6,769 bases of DNA, taken from IMG/VR virus record IMGVR_UViG_2617270964_000002. One strand, written 5' to 3'. This stretch comes from a virus (Duplodnaviria > Heunggongvirae > Uroviricota > Caudoviricetes). A program made the translations under genes and the position numbers. Below, one piece after another: positions 1 to 6,769 of this stretch. The notes under the pieces are model-generated. The model saw only the letters and a program-made list of their open reading frames with translations. It had not been told where the DNA came from and did not search any database. Position 1 is the first letter of the stretch. Each line of letters opens with the position of its first letter.

Positions 1-1098
1 ATGCTGAAGCAGTTCCGTACTGACCTTTCCGGATTTAACGCGCAGTGCCATGGCGGCAGTGCTGCAGTTATACCGTGGATTTGTGGCGACACGACGTATT
101 ACTGGAAAAACACATACGGCACACAGTATGACTCCGTCTACGGCGCGTACAAAAACAGGGAGAGCGACAACGTTTTCTTTGTGCCGTTCATGACCGACGG
201 TAACGGCAACAACACGCCCACCAACTTACCGGCAGAAGACCCGGATATTGCTGATGCAGGTTATTACGGCGCGCAATCCCGTAGTAATGGTAATTGGGTA
301 TCGTCAAATCGTCCGACACATTTCAGTTCATGGGCGCGCAGGGGCATTATTTCGGATCGCCTGGCAACCGCTATTCTGAACGCAGTTGGTCGAACCAGCG
401 CCTTCATCAGCGGTACCGCACCGGAGATTAAACCCTCGCCCGGCGGCGACACGCCATCGGGGCCGTCTGATGGTGACACATCCGTTCGTACAGTCTCCCT
501 GCTGCCGACAGCCGGAGAGGCTGCTGCGCAGGGCTGGACCATCACCGGCGGCAGTGTTGCGCTGGAAGATGGTGTGTTTAAGGTTACCAAGCAGAGCAAT
601 AAAACCTGGTCCCTGATGCATCCGGTGGATGACGCAGTCTCCCTGCTGACACGGGGTGGCAGACTGAGCTGTAAGTTTCGACTGTCAGGCGCACTGACCA
701 ACAACCAGTTCGGTCTGGGAATTTATCTGTATACCGATGTAGCGTTACCTGACGTCGTGGTGATGACCGGGACTGGTAACCCGTTCCTGATGTCGTTCTT
801 CACCCAGACCACAGACGGCAAACTGAATCTGATGCATCACAAGAAAGCCGGAAACACAAAGTTGGGCGAGTTCGGGAATTACAGTAACGACTGGCAGACG
901 CTGGAGCTGGTGTTCACCGCCGGCAGTGCCACGGTTACTCCGAAACTGAATGGAGTGGCTGGCCCGGCATTCCAGGTCATAAAAGACAGTCTGACACTGG
1001 GGCTGAATGCGCTGACGTTAACTGATATCACTAAAAATGCCACGTACGGCGTCGATATCGGCAGCCTGGTGCTGGAAATCAATAATCCCGCAGCATAA
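1..1098 (+). CDS. Hypothetical protein, unassigned; possible accessory (moron) gene. N-terminal Tyr/Gly/Asn-rich region, a Pro/Gly/Ser/Asp linker (approx. aa 140-165, SGTAPEIKPSPGGDTPSGPSDGDTS), and a C-terminal region of about 190 aa that looks beta-rich. True start may lie upstream of the window.
   Basis: Uninterrupted 365-codon ORF ending TAA at 1096-1098, only 23 bp before the R start, so co-oriented and probably co-transcribed. Codon usage and GC resemble neighbouring genes. I recognise no family; the ORF begins exactly at base 1, so the N-terminus is uncertain. Confidence 0.55.
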   Translation: MLKQFRTDLSGFNAQCHGGSAAVIPWICGDTTYYWKNTYGTQYDSVYGAYKNRESDNVFFVPFMTDGNGNNTPTNLPAEDPDIADAGYYGAQSRSNGNWVSSNRPTHFSSWARRGIISDRLATAILNAVGRTSAFISGTAPEIKPSPGGDTPSGPSDGDTSVRTVSLLPTAGEAAAQGWTITGGSVALEDGVFKVTKQSNKTWSLMHPVDDAVSLLTRGGRLSCKFRLSGALTNNQFGLGIYLYTDVALPDVVVMTGTGNPFLMSFFTQTTDGKLNLMHHKKAGNTKLGEFGNYSNDWQTLELVFTAGSATVTPKLNGVAGPAFQVIKDSLTLGLNALTLTDITKNATYGVDIGSLVLEINNPAA

Positions 1099-1121
1099 GG
1101 AAGAGCAGGAGAGCAAAACAG

Positions 1122-1589
1122 ATGCTTAAGACAAACAGTCTGCGAGAGTCCATGCTTCATGGGTGTCGGTGGTGCCAGGCTAATCCCGAGAAATTCACCA
1201 TTTTCGTGGAGAGCGGCAACATTGAAACGACCGGGGAAGCGCCCTCGTTTGTTTACCGCTATCAGATGGTGATGTTTGTCATGGATTACGCCGGAGAGCT
1301 GGACGACCTCACGCTGCCGCTGCTGGCGTGGTTATCCGAAAATCAGCCACAGTTGTTGCTCAACCCTGAGCGTAATCAGGACATCAAATTCTCCGCCGTT
1401 ATCAATGACGATGACAGCGCCGATCTCCTGTTTACGCTCCCCCTGCGGGAACGCGTTCGCGTCACGCGCAGCAGTCAGGGCACACCGCAGGCAGAACACC
1501 TGCCGGAGCCAAAACCCCGCCTGCCATCTTCCGAAGGCGACTGGTCGCATATATTCCAGGATGTGACGTGGGGTGAAAGCGATGGATAA
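1122..1589 (+). CDS. R: Tail completion protein, P2 gpR-like
   Basis: 155-aa ORF; ATG at 1122 preceded by AGGAGAG (1107-1113). Translation (MLKTNSLRE...PLLAWLSENQPQLL...) resembles remembered P2 gpR in length and motifs, and it sits directly upstream of the S homologue. Confidence 0.8.
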   Translation: MLKTNSLRESMLHGCRWCQANPEKFTIFVESGNIETTGEAPSFVYRYQMVMFVMDYAGELDDLTLPLLAWLSENQPQLLLNPERNQDIKFSAVINDDDSADLLFTLPLRERVRVTRSSQGTPQAEHLPEPKPRLPSSEGDWSHIFQDVTWGESDG

Positions 1590-2217
1590 GGCATTCACCC
1601 GCGTGGATGAAACCTTTGAGACCATCCGCGACAGCCTGAATCAGCAGGCCATCAATAACATCGCCAGAAAGCTGGCACAGGATTTACGTCGCGCCCAGCA
1701 GGCACGTATCCGGTCACAGAAAGCGCCGGACGGGACCGCATGGACACCACGCAGACGCCGCGTAACCCGGATACAGGAGCGCATTCGCTTTATCTGGAAT
1801 AACGAAGCACGCACGCTGAAAAACTGGCATCACGACACGGGGAAATACGGGCGAACCATTACCGGGTGGGATGAGGATAAAAACAGCATCCGCACGTTTT
1901 ACCGGGATGACATCGACCGTTTTCTGGAAATACGCACCCGGCGCATCAACCAGGACAGCACAAAGCGCGTCCCCATGTTCGTAAAACTGCGCACCGCCCG
2001 CTACCTGAAAGCCCGTGCAGATGCCTCCGGTGTGACGGTGGGTTACAGCGGCGTGGCCGCACGTATTGCACGCGTTCATCAGTTCGGTGAGCGCGATCAG
2101 GTTGCGCCGGGCATTTTCACCGATTACCCGGTACGTGAGCTGCTGGGTATCAGCCAGGCAGATGAGCGCCTGATTTATAACACGGTGCTGGGCCGGATTG
2201 CGGAGGCTGTACGGTGA
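1582..2217 (+). CDS. S: Tail completion / virion morphogenesis protein, P2 gpS-like
   Basis: ORF in frame from GTG 1573; I prefer ATG 1582 (MDKAFTRVDE...), which overlaps the R stop (1587-1589). Translation has motifs I recall from gpS-family proteins (PRRRRV, KLRTARYL, ARIARVHQFG). Start codon choice is uncertain by 9 nt. Confidence 0.8.
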   Translation: MDKAFTRVDETFETIRDSLNQQAINNIARKLAQDLRRAQQARIRSQKAPDGTAWTPRRRRVTRIQERIRFIWNNEARTLKNWHHDTGKYGRTITGWDEDKNSIRTFYRDDIDRFLEIRTRRINQDSTKRVPMFVKLRTARYLKARADASGVTVGYSGVAARIARVHQFGERDQVAPGIFTDYPVRELLGISQADERLIYNTVLGRIAEAVR

Positions 2218-2795
2218 GCGCAGAACTCATGCGACTGCTGAGCAACATCATCCGCACCGGGATCATCTCTGAAGTTGATGAGAAGTCCTGGCGCGTGCGC
2301 GTTCGCAGCGGCGAACTGGAAACAGGCTGGTTGCGCTGGAACACCACGCGCGCGGGAGCCTTCAATGTGTGGCTGCCGCCATCACCAGGCGAACAGGTGG
2401 TAATTGTCTGCATTGGCGGCAACCCGGAAACCGCCATGATAATTGGCAGCCTGTGGAGTGATGCCAGTCCGGCCCCCGGCAAAAGCCTGAAAGAAATCGT
2501 GGTCAGCGCGCCGGATGGCGCGGTGTTCCGCTACGACGCAGACGCTGGCGCACTGAGCGCCAGCGGCATGAAAACAGCCACCCTGCAGGCATCCGTCAGC
2601 GTGACACTGGATACGCCCGTCGTGGAATGCACAAACCTTCTGAGAACAGCGACGCTTGACGTCACAAAAGGGGGAAAGATGAGCGGCAATATCACGCACA
2701 GCGGCGGCAATTTCACCTCAAACGGTATCACAGTGCATACGCATAAACACGGTGGCGTTAAAGGTGGCAGCGATTCGACAGGAGGCCCGCAGTGA
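2214..2795 (+). CDS. V: Baseplate assembly protein V (central spike), P2 gpV-like
   Basis: GTG start at 2214 overlaps the S stop TGA (2215-2217) as GTGA; GGAGG lies 8 nt upstream. Translation (IIRTGIISEVD..., GEQVVIVCIGG..., VECTNLL..., VHTHKHGG) parallels remembered P2 gpV, including the C-terminal His-x-His-x-His motif. Confidence 0.88.
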   Translation: MSAELMRLLSNIIRTGIISEVDEKSWRVRVRSGELETGWLRWNTTRAGAFNVWLPPSPGEQVVIVCIGGNPETAMIIGSLWSDASPAPGKSLKEIVVSAPDGAVFRYDADAGALSASGMKTATLQASVSVTLDTPVVECTNLLRTATLDVTKGGKMSGNITHSGGNFTSNGITVHTHKHGGVKGGSDSTGGPQ

Positions 2796-3142
2796 CAACC
2801 CGCTACACAGGAATGAATCCGGACGGGACGGGAAACCTGAACGATACGGAGCACCTGAAACAGTCAGTCAGGGACATCCTGACCACCCCGCTGGCCAGCC
2901 GGGTTATGCGACGGGAATATGGCAGCCTTGTACCTGATTTGATTGACGAACCCATGAATAACACCACGCGTCTGCAATGCATGAGTGCTGCCGTGATTGC
3001 GCTGACACGATGGGAACCCCGCATTGCCCTGGACGCCATCGACGTTGTCTGGAAGGCAGGAGGCCGCGCCGGGGTGACGCTGTCGGGCACTGTCATGCAG
3101 ACCATGCAGAATGTTGAGTTAACCATCACGCTGAGGGAGTAA
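2792..3142 (+). CDS. W: Baseplate wedge protein W (GPW/gp25 family, related to T4 gp25 and T6SS TssE)
   Basis: GTG start at 2792 overlaps the V stop (2793-2795); AGGAGG at 2779-2784. N-terminus MTTRYTGMN... closely matches my memory of P2 gpW (MTARYLGMN...); internal RVMRREYGS motif; 116 aa. Confidence 0.9.
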   Translation: MTTRYTGMNPDGTGNLNDTEHLKQSVRDILTTPLASRVMRREYGSLVPDLIDEPMNNTTRLQCMSAAVIALTRWEPRIALDAIDVVWKAGGRAGVTLSGTVMQTMQNVELTITLRE

Positions 3143-3145
3143 ATC

Positions 3146-4042
3146 ATGCCTGCTGTTGACCTTTCCCAGTTACCGGAACCCGCCATCATCGCGGAGCCTG
3201 ATTTTGAGGCAATTCTGGCTGACACAAAGGCCATGATGATTGCGTCCTATCCTGCCGAACAGCGTGAAGCCGTCTCCGCCGCGCTGGAGCTGGAATCGGA
3301 ACCCCTGAACGTTATCGCTCAAACCATGTCTTTTCGTGAAATGCTGTTACGCCAGCGGGTTAACGAGGGCGCACGCGCCTGCATGTTAAGCCACGGTTCA
3401 GGGACAAATCTGGACAACCTCGCGGGCAATATGAACACAAAGCGCCTGGTTATCACTCCGGCAACGGATACCACCGACGCGGTGATGGAGAGCGACACCT
3501 CGCTGAGATTGCGGGCGCAGCGGGCGTACGACGGCCTGAGTGTTGCTGGCCCGTCAGGTGCATACGAGTATTTTGCCCGCAGCGCCAGCGGTCTGGTGCG
3601 CGATGCGCGGGCTATCAGTCCGTCTCCGGCCTGTGTGACGGTTTCCATCCTGTCCACTGAAGGAGACGGCACAGCAACGGAGGCGTTGCTTAATACCGTT
3701 CGCGCCGTTCTGAATGCAGAGGATACCCGCCCGGTGGCCGACCGCCTTACTGTACAGAGCGCCAGAATCGTGACATGGCGGCTGAATGCAAAACTGTACT
3801 TTTACCCCGGCCCGGAATCCGAACCTATTCTGGCCGCGGCGGAATCGTCATTCAGGAAGTGGCTGGCTGAACAGGGGCTTATCGGTCAGGACGTGGCGTT
3901 GTCCGCCATTGCTGCCGCACTTCATGTGCACGGCGTGCAACGCGTGGAGATAATCGAACCCACACAGAATATGGCCATCAGCGACATACAGGCGGCGCGC
4001 TGTGAGTCATTTACCATCAGCGAAGGTGGGCGCAATGAGTAA
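3146..4042 (+). CDS. J: Baseplate assembly protein J (T4 gp6 / TssF-like)
   Basis: ATG 3146 with GGGAG 7 nt upstream; 298 aa. Translation (MPAVDLSQLPEP..., ESEPL..., RPVADRLTVQSA..., HVHGVQRVE) tracks remembered P2 gpJ along its length. Confidence 0.9.
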   Translation: MPAVDLSQLPEPAIIAEPDFEAILADTKAMMIASYPAEQREAVSAALELESEPLNVIAQTMSFREMLLRQRVNEGARACMLSHGSGTNLDNLAGNMNTKRLVITPATDTTDAVMESDTSLRLRAQRAYDGLSVAGPSGAYEYFARSASGLVRDARAISPSPACVTVSILSTEGDGTATEALLNTVRAVLNAEDTRPVADRLTVQSARIVTWRLNAKLYFYPGPESEPILAAAESSFRKWLAEQGLIGQDVALSAIAAALHVHGVQRVEIIEPTQNMAISDIQAARCESFTISEGGRNE

Positions 4043-4643
4043 TTCACTGTTACCGCCATCAGCCAGCAGTTTCATGCGTTGTGCCGAAGCCGTCGGAACA
4101 CGCATTACAGACATTCCGGTAGACCTCAATACGCTGTGGTCGCCGGATACCTGCCCGGTGCATCTGCTGCCTTATCTCGCCTGGGCGTTTTCCGTTGACC
4201 GCTGGGATCGCAACTGGCCGGAAGAGACAAAGCGACAGGTAATTCGTGATGCATGGCTGATACACCGACACAAAGGGACCATCAGCGCACTGCGAAGAGC
4301 CGTGGAGCCTCTCGGCTACCTGATTGAAGTAAAGGAGTGGTGGCAACTCAACGAGGAGCCAGGAACATTTCGCATTGTTGTCGGAGTACTTGATCAGGGC
4401 ATCACCGATGAAATGTATCAGGAACTTGAGCGCCTTGTTGCGGATGCAAAACCAGTAAGTCGCCATCTGACGGGGCTGGCGATCAGCCTGAGTGTGAACG
4501 GAAAGATTTTCGTTGGTACGGGATGCTATCACGGCGATGCCCTGACGGTTTATCCCTACACCCCGGAGTCCATTATTGTCGAAGGGGATTATTTCCCTGC
4601 CCCGGCCATTCATTTAATTGATAATCTGAGAGTAAACGCATGA
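4035..4643 (+). CDS. I: Baseplate/tail protein I (TssG-like)
   Basis: ORF opens at 4002 but the likely start is ATG 4035 (MSNSLLP...), overlapping the J stop at 4040-4042. The motif LLPYLAWAFSVDRWD and HRHKGTISALRR match the gpI family as I remember it. Confidence 0.88.
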   Translation: MSNSLLPPSASSFMRCAEAVGTRITDIPVDLNTLWSPDTCPVHLLPYLAWAFSVDRWDRNWPEETKRQVIRDAWLIHRHKGTISALRRAVEPLGYLIEVKEWWQLNEEPGTFRIVVGVLDQGITDEMYQELERLVADAKPVSRHLTGLAISLSVNGKIFVGTGCYHGDALTVYPYTPESIIVEGDYFPAPAIHLIDNLRVNA

Positions 4644-6238
4644 CAGTGAAATACTACGCCATTCTGACTAATCAGGGCGCAGCACGACTGGCTAACGCGA
4701 CGATGCTCGGCAGTAAGCTGAATCTGACGCAAATGGCCGTTGGTGATGCAAATGGTGTGTTACCAACACCAGACCCTGCACAAACAAAACTGATTAACCA
4801 GAAACGCATTGCACCGCTGAATCTTCTGAGTGTTGACCCTAACAATCAGAGCCAGATTATTGCGGAGCAAATCATCCCTGAAAACGAGGGAGGATTCTGG
4901 ATCCGTGAGATTGGTCTTTATGATGATGAAGGTGTACTCATTGCGGTGGCAAACTGCCCGGAAACGTACAAACCGCAGTTGCAGGAAGGCAGTGGACGCA
5001 CCCAGACTATCCGCATGATTCTGGTTGTCACGAACACCGAAGCCATCACGCTGAAAATCGACCCGTCTGTGGTTCTGGCAACCCGCAAATATGTGGATGA
5101 TAAAATCTCAGAGCACGAACAGTCACGACGTCACCCGGACGCCTCGCTGACCGCAAAAGGTTTTACTCAGTTAAGCAGTGCAATTAACAGTGAATCAGAA
5201 ACACTGGCCGCAACACCGAAAGCAGTTAAGGCTGCATATGACCTGGCTGACGGGAAATATACCGCCCAGAACGCCACCACAACACAAAAAGGGATTGTTC
5301 AGCTCAGTAGCGCCACGAACAGCACGTCTGAAACGCTGGCAGCGACACCAAAAGCTGTTAAGGCGGTAATGGATGAAACGAGCAAGAAAGCACCATTAAA
5401 CAGCCCGGCACTGACCGGAACGCCAACAACACCAACAGCGCCACAGGGGACTAATAGTACCCAGATCGCAAGCACGGCTTTCGTTATGGCCGCGATTGCC
5501 GCACTTGTAGATTCGTCACCTGATGCACTGAACACGCTGAACGAACTGGCTGCGGCGCTGGGCAATGACCCGAATTTTGCGACCACCATGACTAACGCGC
5601 TTGCGGGTAAGCAACCGAAGGATGCCACCCTGACGGCGCTGGCGGAGCTTGCTACATCAGCAGATAAACTCCCATATTTTACAGGAGCAGATCGTGCCGC
5701 GTTAACCGCGTTGACAAGTGTTGGACGTGCCATTCTTGGTAAAACCAGCACTCAGGGAGTTCTTGATTACCTTCATTTGGAAGAAACGGTAAAACAGGCC
5801 GCTGGAGCGATGCAGAAAAGTGCAAACGGTGGTGATATTCAGAATGTGGCCGCTTTCAGAAATGCCCTTCAGCTTGGTACGGCGGCACTGGCCTCTATGG
5901 GAGTGGGAAAAAATCAGGTATTGAGTGCATCAGATTTCTCTTTCTTCGCCGGTGGAAATGGCTATTTGTATATTCCTTGTCTTGCAACCACAGATAATCC
6001 GGTAAAGATAATGCTGCAGTGGGGAACCATACGGACACGCGGCGGAGAGAATAATATCTACAACCTGCCCTATGCATTTCCAACCGCAGGTCTGTGGGCT
6101 ATGGGATGCAGAGCAGCGAATGGCTACAGCCAGTCAATGAATGTCAGTATAGAAAATCGGTCTCAAATCAGGATCCAAAACTGGGCGCCAGCAGGGGCGG
6201 TAGAAGATTGCTGTTTCTTCGCTGTGGGGTATTTATGA
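4640..6238 (+). CDS. H: Tail fiber protein H: conserved P2 gpH-like N-terminal shaft (approx. aa 1-375) fused to a shorter, AT-richer C-terminal distal domain
   Basis: ATG 4640 overlaps the I stop as ATGA. 532 aa. N-terminus (MTVKYYAILTNQGAARLA...MAVGD...GGFWIREIGLYDDEGVLIAVAN...) and the repeated LSSA(T/I)NS(T/E)SETLAATPKAVKA motif are hallmarks of P2 H / Mu S-type tail fibers. The C-terminal part of roughly 150 aa has no resemblance I recognise, as expected for a receptor-binding tip. Confidence 0.9.
   Translation: MTVKYYAILTNQGAARLANATMLGSKLNLTQMAVGDANGVLPTPDPAQTKLINQKRIAPLNLLSVDPNNQSQIIAEQIIPENEGGFWIREIGLYDDEGVLIAVANCPETYKPQLQEGSGRTQTIRMILVVTNTEAITLKIDPSVVLATRKYVDDKISEHEQSRRHPDASLTAKGFTQLSSAINSESETLAATPKAVKAAYDLADGKYTAQNATTTQKGIVQLSSATNSTSETLAATPKAVKAVMDETSKKAPLNSPALTGTPTTPTAPQGTNSTQIASTAFVMAAIAALVDSSPDALNTLNELAAALGNDPNFATTMTNALAGKQPKDATLTALAELATSADKLPYFTGADRAALTALTSVGRAILGKTSTQGVLDYLHLEETVKQAAGAMQKSANGGDIQNVAAFRNALQLGTAALASMGVGKNQVLSASDFSFFAGGNGYLYIPCLATTDNPVKIMLQWGTIRTRGGENNIYNLPYAFPTAGLWAMGCRAANGYSQSMNVSIENRSQIRIQNWAPAGAVEDCCFFAVGYL
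5156..5368 (+). repeat. Tandem intragenic repeat inside H: two 27-aa cores (KGFTQLSSAINSESETLAATPKAVKAA and KGIVQLSSATNSTSETLAATPKAVKAV) spaced 132 bp apart
   Basis: Read directly from sequence: cores at 5156-5236 and 5288-5368, 22/27 aa identical, with many synonymous codon differences (e.g. tta agc agt vs ctc agt agc for LSS). Confidence 0.85.
5760..5785. other. Candidate Hin/Gin/Cin/Pin-type invertase crossover site (26 bp imperfect dyad TTCTTGATTACC-TT-CATTTGGAAGAA); speculative
   Basis: TTCTT-N16-AAGAA dyad of the same length and outer sequence as the hix/gix consensus (TTCTTGAAAACC-AA-GGTTTTTGATAA as I recall it). It lies at the point in H where the conserved shaft ends and composition drops. 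The partner site would lie outside the window, so it cannot be confirmed here. Confidence 0.25.
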
Positions 6239-6651
6239 ATAAATTTTATCAGGGTGTTTTTTATCCGGAAGCACTTAAAGATGCCTATGTTTCTGCCGGA
6301 ACGTGGCCGGAACATGCTGCCGATGTGAGTGATGAGGCAATGGCTGTTTATAGCCAGTACCCACCGGAAGGGAAAATGCTGGGAACGGATAATAATGGTT
6401 ATCCTGTGTGGGTTGACATCCCCTCCCTGTCGCCTGAAGAACGAGTTGCCCGGGCTGAGCAAACACGACGTGATTTACGTACGCGGGCGGATTCTGAAAT
6501 AGCCTGGCGACAGGATGCTGTTGACGCGGATATCGCGACGGATGAGGAAACCGCCGCGTTGTCTGAGTGGAAGAAGTACCGGGTACTGTTAATGCGGGTT
6601 GATACAGCAAAACCCGTATGGCCTACACCTCCGGGGGAACAGGCCAGTTAA
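6235..6651 (+). CDS. tfa: Tail fiber assembly protein (Tfa; P2 gpG / Mu U-like chaperone)
   Basis: ATG 6235 overlaps the H stop (6236-6238) as ATGA; 138 aa. C-terminus carries the Tfa signature (DEETAALSEWKKYRVLLMRVDTAKPVWPTPP), comparable to the ...W..Y.VL..RVD...P.WP ending of remembered gpG. The listed ORF start at 6094 is an out-of-frame overlap with H and is not used. Confidence 0.8.
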   Translation: MNKFYQGVFYPEALKDAYVSAGTWPEHAADVSDEAMAVYSQYPPEGKMLGTDNNGYPVWVDIPSLSPEERVARAEQTRRDLRTRADSEIAWRQDAVDADIATDEETAALSEWKKYRVLLMRVDTAKPVWPTPPGEQAS

Positions 6652-6769
6652 TATGCTCAGGGTTGGTTGTCACATCAACCGCCTTAACTTCATTCTTATA
6701 CGCCAGCCATGCCGACAGTTTAGCTCTGTTGGTGTCGCTGATTTCATCCAGCATTAGTTCCGTTCGCCA
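6623..6769 (-). CDS. Partial CDS (C-terminal 48 aa plus stop) of a second, inverted tail fiber assembly protein (tfa'); N-terminus lies beyond the right edge
   Basis: Only one - strand frame is open across 6769..6626, stop TAG at 6625-6623. Translation ...LMLDEISDTNRAKLSAWLAYKNEVKAVDVTTNPEHINWPVPPEV* has the same Tfa C-terminal signature (DE..., L.AW..YK, VD, WP.PP) as the + strand tfa. The two genes converge and overlap by 29 bp (6623-6651). Confidence 0.6.
   Translation of the reverse strand, partial: WRTELMLDEISDTNRAKLSAWLAYKNEVKAVDVTTNPEHINWPVPPEV

Follow-up and report, generated by a model that had tools for sequence, protein, structure and literature searches.

The window analysed here is the whole 6,769-bp contig JHDG01000044.1 of GCA_000601135.1, and the right-hand flank of the locus lies outside it. 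As the window is a complete contig, its interpretation rests on comparison with other loci and not on the source genome. The genes are arranged in the order R, S, V, W, J, I, H, as in P88-like relatives; H, the tail fibre gene, is followed by two convergent genes of tail fibre assembly chaperones, tfa and tfa', and the contig ends inside the latter. The features are as follows.

4640-5773, + strand: constant N-terminal part of H (codons 1-378, ending ...VLDYL), outside the invertible segment proposed below
5760-5785, + strand: left 26-bp crossover site, TTCTTGATTACC-TT-CATTTGGAAGAA, with the 2-bp core TT at 5772-5773
5774-6238, + strand: Hv, the expressed variable C-terminal tip of H (154 aa and stop), inside the proposed segment
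6235-6651, + strand: tfa, tail fibre assembly chaperone of the tip Hv, with Caudo_TAP, phrog_188 and Mu TfaU matches
6623-6769 (147 bp), - strand: 3' end of tfa', chaperone of the silent alternative tip, comprising the last 48 codons and the stop, cut by the contig end
6623-6651, both strands: 29-bp tail-to-tail overlap of tfa and tfa', a quasi-palindrome TGGCCT...AGGCCA coding for W-P-x-P-P on each strand

Fibre gene and the two chaperone genes

H is a continuous ORF of 532 aa on the + strand (4640-6238) that runs across the crossover site. Residues 1-150 match the Pfam domain Phage_tail_fib (E 1.5e-62), two Phage_fiber_2 repeats are also found, and residues 457-531 match Gp53-like_C (E 1.3e-6). 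The start ATG of tfa overlaps the stop of H (ATGA, 6235-6238), and its product, read from the ORF, has 138 aa, MNKFYQ...VWPTPPGEQAS*. It matches the full Caudo_TAP profile (PF02413; Pfam, 112 bits, E 2.8e-32) and phrog_188, tail fiber assembly protein (E 2.8e-42), while the C-terminal half is similar to the tail fibre assembly protein U of Mu, whose structure is solved (TfaU, 5YVQ_B; E 7.8e-10).

The fragment of tfa' ends with ...NWPVPPEV* and the stop TAG at 6623-6625. Its 48 aa align with positions 86-131 of the 131 positions of Caudo_TAP at 37.7 bits (E 2.7e-9), the curated Pfam cut-off being 22.1 bits, and the 140-aa tfa' of E. coli ET846 has the same end (100%); tfa and the full-length tfa' partner are 41% identical. 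A preliminary description of this DNA had proposed a convergent pair of tfa genes with a 29-bp overlap and a common C-terminal signature. Both genes indeed belong to Caudo_TAP, and each ends in a W-P-x-P-P motif. Judged by sequence, the - strand ORF at 6623-6769 is not a chance ORF, because annotated tail fibre assembly genes of ET846 share 99.9% identity with positions 5772-6769. The identical 29-bp overlap is annotated in ET846 as well as in phage 500465-2, E. coli TOE17 and E. coli 06-00048. The fold of the overlap is modest (z = -2.16) and no terminator-like site was found in it; a regulatory hairpin was considered at this place and rejected, the modest fold being explained by the two W-P-x-P-P coding ends.

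H is also seen here to have a constant 5' part joined in frame, across 5760-5785, to a variable 3' part, with the crossover core lying in the last codon of the constant part, CTT. The codon position of the site is the same as that of the sites in P88, 500465-2 and TOE17; the P88 site reads TTATCGAATACC-TC-GGTTTACAGGAA. When scored against the Gin/Hin-type half-site consensus, the site is weak, with 12 of 20 scored positions matching, compared to 11 in background windows, and the inner half-site CATTTGGAAGAA deviates from the usual GGTTTGGGAGAA. The consensus score was thus rejected as proof of the site, being too weak, and the breakpoint evidence was used instead. In 10 other loci, seven different outer halves are attached to the cassette with the inner half-site, the joint lying exactly at the TT core, and in every case similarity of the window to the other copies starts exactly at this core. 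The earlier suggestion of a crossover site at 5760-5785 is therefore upheld on comparative support, that is, by the breakpoints at the TT core and by the position matching that of other phages' sites.

The same segment and related backbones in other genomes

We read ten genomic contexts of the identical Tfa (L006-L015), the exact Tfa protein being indexed in 154 public-collection blocks. Window positions 5774-6769 are 99.9% identical to a 1,803-bp segment of other E. coli prophages, and the tip corresponding to Hv, silent or expressed, has 99.9% identity to it in ET846 and in these ten loci. In ET846 the stretch corresponding to 5772-6769 is inverted, lies opposite an expressed fibre gene, and adjoins a recombinase of 182 aa with the Resolvase and HTH_7 domains. 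For one locus, L007, the 99.9% identity over the aligned stretch, which includes the tfa' fragment, extends to the last base of the window.

In the nine complete copies the full 140-aa tfa' is followed by an inverted promoterless alternative tip, Hv' (called as an ORF of 189 aa), that has no start codon of its own inside the segment and shares only 31% identity with Hv. The core-to-core distance equals 1,803 bp in nine loci, and the second 26-bp site is inverted relative to the first one. This partner site reads TTTTC(T/A)TAAACG-TT-GGTTTGGGAGAA, or carries the outer half from the constant part of H if the segment is flipped; on the + strand the core of the right site in these loci is AA. In eight of the ten contexts, tfa' and Hv' are found together with a full-length invertase of 182-197 aa; over all complete copies the size of this serine recombinase, which has Resolvase and HTH_7 domains, is given as 182-199 aa. 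In one further locus the invertase ORF has only 119 aa (L008), and another is a deletion remnant (L010), where a 2.8-kb deletion starting 239 bp into tfa' has removed Hv', the invertase and the sheath gene. The backbones carrying the segment include P2-like and Mu-like ones and a fourth myovirus type.

Related P2-like prophages, as distinct from the source strain, show the identical segment in both orientations: L007 is opposite to L006, and L012 to L011, with a stretch of 1,810 bp inverted at 99.95% identity and with collinear flanks that are 94-98% identical within these pairs. The preliminary description had interpreted the locus as an invertible tail-fibre cassette, and this interpretation is supported by the comparison, the identical segment being complete and present in both orientations in other prophages.

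The part of the window to the left of the segment has different relatives. Positions 1-5771 are 99.3% identical to the prophage of E. coli TOE17, after which identity falls to about 77%, and another backbone relative, 266917_2, shows 98.5% identity. From 1164 to about 5100-5680 the window is 97.3% identical to 500465-2 and about 93-94% identical to P88 and its relatives. On these similarities we place the prophage among P88-like Peduoviridae (relatives of Xuanwuvirus/Gemsvirus), the single module present in the window, that of tail completion, baseplate and fibre, allowing for assignment above the genus level. In all five closest backbones examined (TOE17, 266917_2, 06-00048, P88 and 500465-2) the fibre cassettes are followed by an invertase at the predicted place and then by tail genes. 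The TOE17 invertase matches the Mu Gin structures 3UJ3 and 4M6F (about E 1e-91) and phrog_125, DNA invertase (1.3e-99). As these P88-like relatives already carry the switch, the earlier suggestion that a P2-type prophage had acquired one is supported as regards the presence of the switch, but does not hold as regards its gain.

Among 5,426 complete E. coli genomes, the stretch from tfa' onward is present in one, and none of them spans the junction between the constant part of H and Hv. A query for the predicted flipped junction was composed of window positions 5274-5773 and the partner tip of L007, and nothing spans it in the same set. The cassette of the tip and chaperone found in the window is carried by just 1 of the 5,426 complete genomes and is absent from the sequenced phages of the collection, and GTDB representatives (one genome per species) contain only diverged relatives, several of them on tiny contigs. 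Since the stretch at which the contig breaks inside tfa' occurs in just one of the complete genomes, a common repeat was rejected as the cause of the break, which could mark a rearrangement.

A proposed invertible segment and its alternatives

Taken together, these observations make it very probable that the window contains the left 996 bp (55%) of a 1,803-bp invertible segment of the Gin/Cin/Pin type in a P88-like prophage, most likely of E. coli. In the proposed mechanism, H would be transcribed from the late baseplate/fibre operon, its codons 1-378 being fixed outside the segment, and the reading frame would enter the segment at 5760-5785 and continue into one of two tips, each with its own chaperone gene. 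In the sequenced orientation Hv (5774-6238) and tfa (6235-6651) would be expressed, while the pair of tfa' and Hv', facing the opposite way, with no promoter and no start codon, would be silent. A serine invertase encoded just past the segment would flip the segment by cutting each of the 26-bp sites at its 2-bp core, thereby fusing Hv' to the constant part of H. Given such fusion, the lysogen population would probably release particles with two receptor specificities, provided that, as we expect, the two tips bind different receptors. The right site is predicted to read TTCTCCCAAACC-AA-CGTTTAAGAAAA on the + strand, or a close variant, and to lie some 808 bp beyond the end of the window, a gene for a serine recombinase of 188-199 aa being expected to begin roughly 65 bp after it; the flipped junctions would consist of the constant part of H (to 5773) followed by GGTTTGGGAGAAGCGG... 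and of the invertase-side flank followed by CATTTGGAAGAAACGG... By analogy with the complete copies, the source genome probably retains intact the missing approximately 0.8 kb of the segment and an invertase gene of about 0.6 kb, and flipping presumably takes place in it.

An unlikely alternative is that the segment was once invertible and is now fixed, either because it was rearranged from a point within tfa' just past 6769 (by deletion or insertion sequence, for example) or because the invertase is inactive or missing, so that Hv and tfa are permanently expressed. Such decay does happen among the copies: the piece of tfa' left in the deletion remnant described above is 239 bp long and exceeds the 147 bp of the window, and the 119-aa invertase ORF would also fit. 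The contig ends inside tfa' where no common repeat is known, and this end might be the junction of an insertion or rearrangement. On the other hand, full-length invertases prevail, both among the contexts of the identical Tfa (eight of ten) and among the closest backbones (five of five), the 99.9% identity to the intact segment continues through the last base of the window, where foreign sequence is absent, and the left crossover site is intact.

It is far less probable still that the arrangement is a fixed two-fibre one, with tfa' being a second, independently expressed chaperone gene that never rearranged, or that the - strand ORF is spurious: only 48 codons of tfa' are visible and there are no promoter or terminator signals between tfa and tfa', but the fragment scores well above the Caudo_TAP cut-off and shows no difference from the 3' end of a 140-aa tfa' annotated elsewhere, copies of the identical segment lie in either orientation, their breakpoints falling at the site cores, and the partner tip lacks its own start codon in the segment.

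Under the preferred reading of an invertible segment, the annotation of H in the source prophage should present it as one of two alternative forms, and short contigs are to be expected around such loci. It is also possible, though we hold this only tentatively, that the source prophage is a rare recent chimera, in which a P88-like backbone took the complete 1.8-kb cassette precisely at the crossover core. This suggestion is based on the exact 532-aa H fusion being on record solely for the source contig, and on the combination of this backbone and this segment, in either orientation, being found in none of the 5,426 complete E. coli genomes. If true, it would be a natural case of invertase sites serving as portable junctions that swap host-range modules between unrelated phages. 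The locus in any case adds a further clean example of tail-fibre cassettes common to unrelated backbones, with edges exactly at the crossover core.

Comparison with known inversion systems

The type of the switch has long been known: its mechanism and family are established, and so is its occurrence in E. coli P2-like prophages. The arrangement resembles the G segment of Mu (Gin; S/U and S'/U'), with the constant part of the fibre outside, two alternative C-terminal tips inside, two convergent chaperone genes at the centre, flanking 26-bp sites that each have a 2-bp core, and an adjacent Gin-type serine invertase, which is known here from the relatives. The P88 sites are close to the Mu gix sequence, and a Mu-like E. 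coli prophage (L014) carries the identical segment. The differences are that the segment is shorter (1.8 kb, compared to about 3 kb in Mu G), the backbone is of the P2 family and not of Mu, each tip is a short C-terminal domain of the gp53-like kind, and the usual inner half-site is less degenerate than CATTTGGAAGAA.

Cassettes of this kind were reportedly found in 1992 by Sandmeier, Iida and Arber and by Haggard-Ljungquist et al. to be common to unrelated phages, with boundaries at crossover sites. In P1 C (Cin), e14 P (Pin) and p15B Min, invertases of the Din family swap fibre tips and tfa genes at short crossover sites. The invertase logic of these three systems, compared here in organization, is shared by the locus, while the evidence in the window is for two cassettes only; L026, one of the relatives, carries several silent tips and in this resembles Min.

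P2 itself has the same operon order, V W J I H followed by the chaperone gene, and the same protein families. It differs in that its H-G pair is single and fixed, with a terminator and then fun(Z) coming after it; the preliminary description was correct on the single fixed pair, P2 having no tfa', silent tip or invertase.

Other close systems belong to the same phage family. In the fibre loci of P2-like prophages of EPEC E2348/69, inversion within clonal cultures has been demonstrated (Goldberg et al., 2014, PMC4272514), and tail-fibre inverting segments of P2-like prophages of E. coli have been systematically catalogued (PMC9881135). P88 (NC_026014) and 500465-2 (NC_049343) belong to this family too and have the gene order I, H, tfa, tfa', silent tip, invertase. 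Over the baseplate genes and the H constant part they are 93-97% identical to the window at the nucleotide level, while the tip and chaperone cassette of the window is another allele.

Chaperone pair and left crossover site

The window appears to carry one part of an invertible tail-fibre segment, an interpretation supported by strong comparative evidence from sequence. Its locus has the design of Mu G, P1 C and e14 P, and the feature is an already known kind of switch. The stretch comprises all 6,769 bp of contig JHDG01000044.1 (assembly GCA_000601135.1), with readable sequence ending at 6769, and contains the following features:

1-1098, + strand: 3' part of the DUF6645 gene (C-terminal 365 aa; the contig start cuts the gene)
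within the window: R, S, V, W, J and I, P2-family tail-completion and baseplate genes
4640-6238: H, tail fibre gene, 532 aa
6235-6651, + strand: tfa, tail fibre assembly gene, 138 aa, Caudo_TAP
6623-6769, strand opposite to tfa: last 48 codons of tfa', Caudo_TAP

The preliminary description of a convergent tfa/tfa' pair overlapping by 29 bp (6623-6651) holds as stated. In profile matching tfa covers the full Pfam Caudo_TAP profile (E 2.8e-32), and the tfa' fragment, profile positions 86-131 (E 2.7e-9); the C-terminal half of tfa also has a match in the solved structure of Mu chaperone U (5YVQ_B). The identical 29-bp overlap is annotated in four further loci. The two reading frames end in VWPTPPGEQAS and NWPVPPEV, and since W-P-x-P-P is encoded on both strands, the overlap forms a quasi-palindrome TGGCCT...AGGCCA. 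Compared with shuffled sequence, the region 6596-6680 has a modestly more stable fold (z = –2.16); scanned for terminators, it has neither a T-run nor a terminator-like site. Late transcription probably continues in antisense direction into the silent cassette. With 41% identity between the chaperones and only 31% between the alternative fibre tips, the cassettes are truly different.

The left crossover site was located by comparison. Identity to the prophage of E. coli TOE17 is 99.3% over window positions 1-5771 and falls to about 77% afterwards, while 5772-6769 is 99.9% identical to a region of E. coli ET846 lying inside a quite different prophage. The change occurs in the middle of TTCTTGATTACC-TT-CATTTGGAAGAA (5760-5785). 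Three other sites share its codon position (...YL|GL...):

P88: TTATCGAATACC-TC-GGTTTACAGGAA
500465-2: TTCTCGCATACC-TT-GGTTTGGGAGAA
TOE17: TTCTTGATTACC-TT-GGTTTGGGAGAA

The consensus score of the window site, 12/20, is barely higher than the background of 11/20, so that the evidence for this site is comparative. In ten other loci TT-CATTTGGAAGAA-ACGG... is linked to outer halves of seven kinds, the junction always falling exactly at the TT core; four of these halves come from constant parts of fibre genes (three variants of P2-like H and one Mu-like S) and two adjoin an invertase gene. The inner half-site CATTTGGAAGAA is degenerate, which is slightly unusual.

The complete segment and its orientations

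In the public collection 154 blocks are indexed with exactly this Tfa protein, and ten of these contexts were read. Eight contain, in order, a tip, tfa, a 140-aa tfa', a silent tip (called, in its silent state, as an ORF of 189 aa) and a recombinase of full length (182-197 aa) with Resolvase and HTH_7 domains. The remaining two contain the segment in decayed form: in L008 the invertase ORF (7620-7979) has only 119 aa, and in L010 a 2.8-kb deletion starting 239 bp into tfa' has taken out the sheath gene along with the silent tip and the invertase. The L010 deletion (6627/6622 junction) extends to the tube gene region.

In nine loci the two cores lie 1,803 bp apart, the partner site on the minus strand being TTTTC(T/A)TAAACG-TT-GGTTTGGGAGAA; given this spacing, 996 of the 1,803 bp fall within the window. 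The second core should then lie about 808 bp past the window end, and the invertase gene would start about 65 bp further. In each of L001/L009, L006-L008 and L011-L014 the boundaries of the segment coincide exactly with the crossover cores. Four unrelated myovirus backbones carry it: the P88-like one of the window (996 bp seen), P2-like ones, a Mu-like one (the E. coli prophage L014 next to dusA), and the ET846 prophage, which has DUF2612 and baseplate J genes. The identical cassette and neighboring recombinase genes are already annotated in RefSeq. The cassette is absent from all sequenced phages searched. Slightly unusual are the rarity of this cassette allele in E. coli and its occurrence in four different backbones with junctions exactly at the core.

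Other genomes show the identical segment in both orientations. In two pairs of related P2-like prophages (L007 and L006, L012 and L011) the flanks are collinear with 94-98% identity, and the 1,810 bp enclosed by the sites lie in inverse orientation with 99.95% identity; hence the segment, including half-site CATTTGGAAGAA, has recombined at these sites in nature. Inversion of fibre segments within clonal cultures has been demonstrated for P2-like prophages of E. coli E2348/69 (PMC4272514), and the gene families enriched at programmed inversions across bacteria include those for tail fibres, their assembly and tail protein I (PMC9881135).

State of the segment in the source strain

The contig ends at 6769 in the middle of tfa', matching the intact segment to its last base. 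Among 5,426 complete E. coli genomes a single one contains the sequence at the contig end and the remainder of the segment, so the break is not accounted for by a common repeat. It could stem from low coverage, from another, partial copy within the genome, or from an insertion or a deletion. The window backbone joined to the segment was found in none of the 5,426 genomes in either orientation. Related tfa genes of Citrobacter draft assemblies (L018, L021, L023) lie on tiny contigs of 1.3-2.1 kb, which fits a tendency of inverting, mosaic loci to fragment short-read assemblies.

A fixed remnant of the segment in the source strain is unlikely, although the L010 remnant retains more of tfa' than the window does. 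An intact switch is quite probable; we infer that the strain has the missing half and the invertase, that flipping is ongoing, and that the tips differ in receptor specificity. In the proposed mechanism, transcription of the late operon passes through the constant 378 codons of H, crosses the site and enters Hv, the tip expressed in the window orientation, and tfa. The oppositely oriented tfa'-Hv' pair, having neither promoter nor start codon, is silent. Cleavage of both sites by the invertase at the 2-bp core would invert the 1.8-kb segment, fusing the alternative tip Hv' in frame (CTT|GGT TTG GGA GAA) with tfa' downstream, and a lysogen culture would release two particle types. In the Gin/Hin family inversion is aided by Fis and an enhancer within the invertase gene.

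Backbone and related prophages

From 1164 to approximately 5100-5680, identity of the window is 97.3% with Escherichia phage 500465-2 (Gemsvirus, Peduoviridae) and about 93-94% with P88 and its relatives (Xuanwuvirus, Peduoviridae). In all five related backbones opened (P88, 500465-2, TOE17, strains 266917_2 and 06-00048) the fibre/chaperone cassettes precede a gene for a DNA invertase of about 196-199 aa, beyond which lie tail genes of the other strand. At this place P2 has nothing beyond H, G, a terminator and fun(Z), in agreement with the single fixed H-G pair ascribed to it; the suggestion that a P2-type prophage newly acquired the switch fails, as the lineage generally carries one. The invertase of the nearest backbone relative is Gin-like, matching Mu Gin structures 3UJ3 and 4M6F (E about 1e-91) and the phrog_125 DNA invertase (1.3e-99).

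In strain 266917_2, a 98.5% backbone relative, H is followed by one minus-strand tfa, four successive minus-strand tail-fibre fragments and the invertase (L026, 9140-14000), which looks like a multi-cassette shufflon instead of a two-state switch. In TOE17, the closest complete-genome relative, the annotation splits H into two pieces, a fragment marked as a pseudogene and a gp53-like ORF of its own (L005, 11640-13241), suggesting a frameshift or a sequencing error in the record.

The protein encoded at 1-1098 belongs to DUF6645/phrog_143, a family without an assigned function. The full gene (626 aa in TOE17 and 266917_2) lies between lysC and the tail-completion gene R; as it is missing from this position in P88, 500465-2 and 06-00048, it looks like a moron-type insertion. 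Stx1a-converting phages have a gene about 85% identical in DNA to that of the window.
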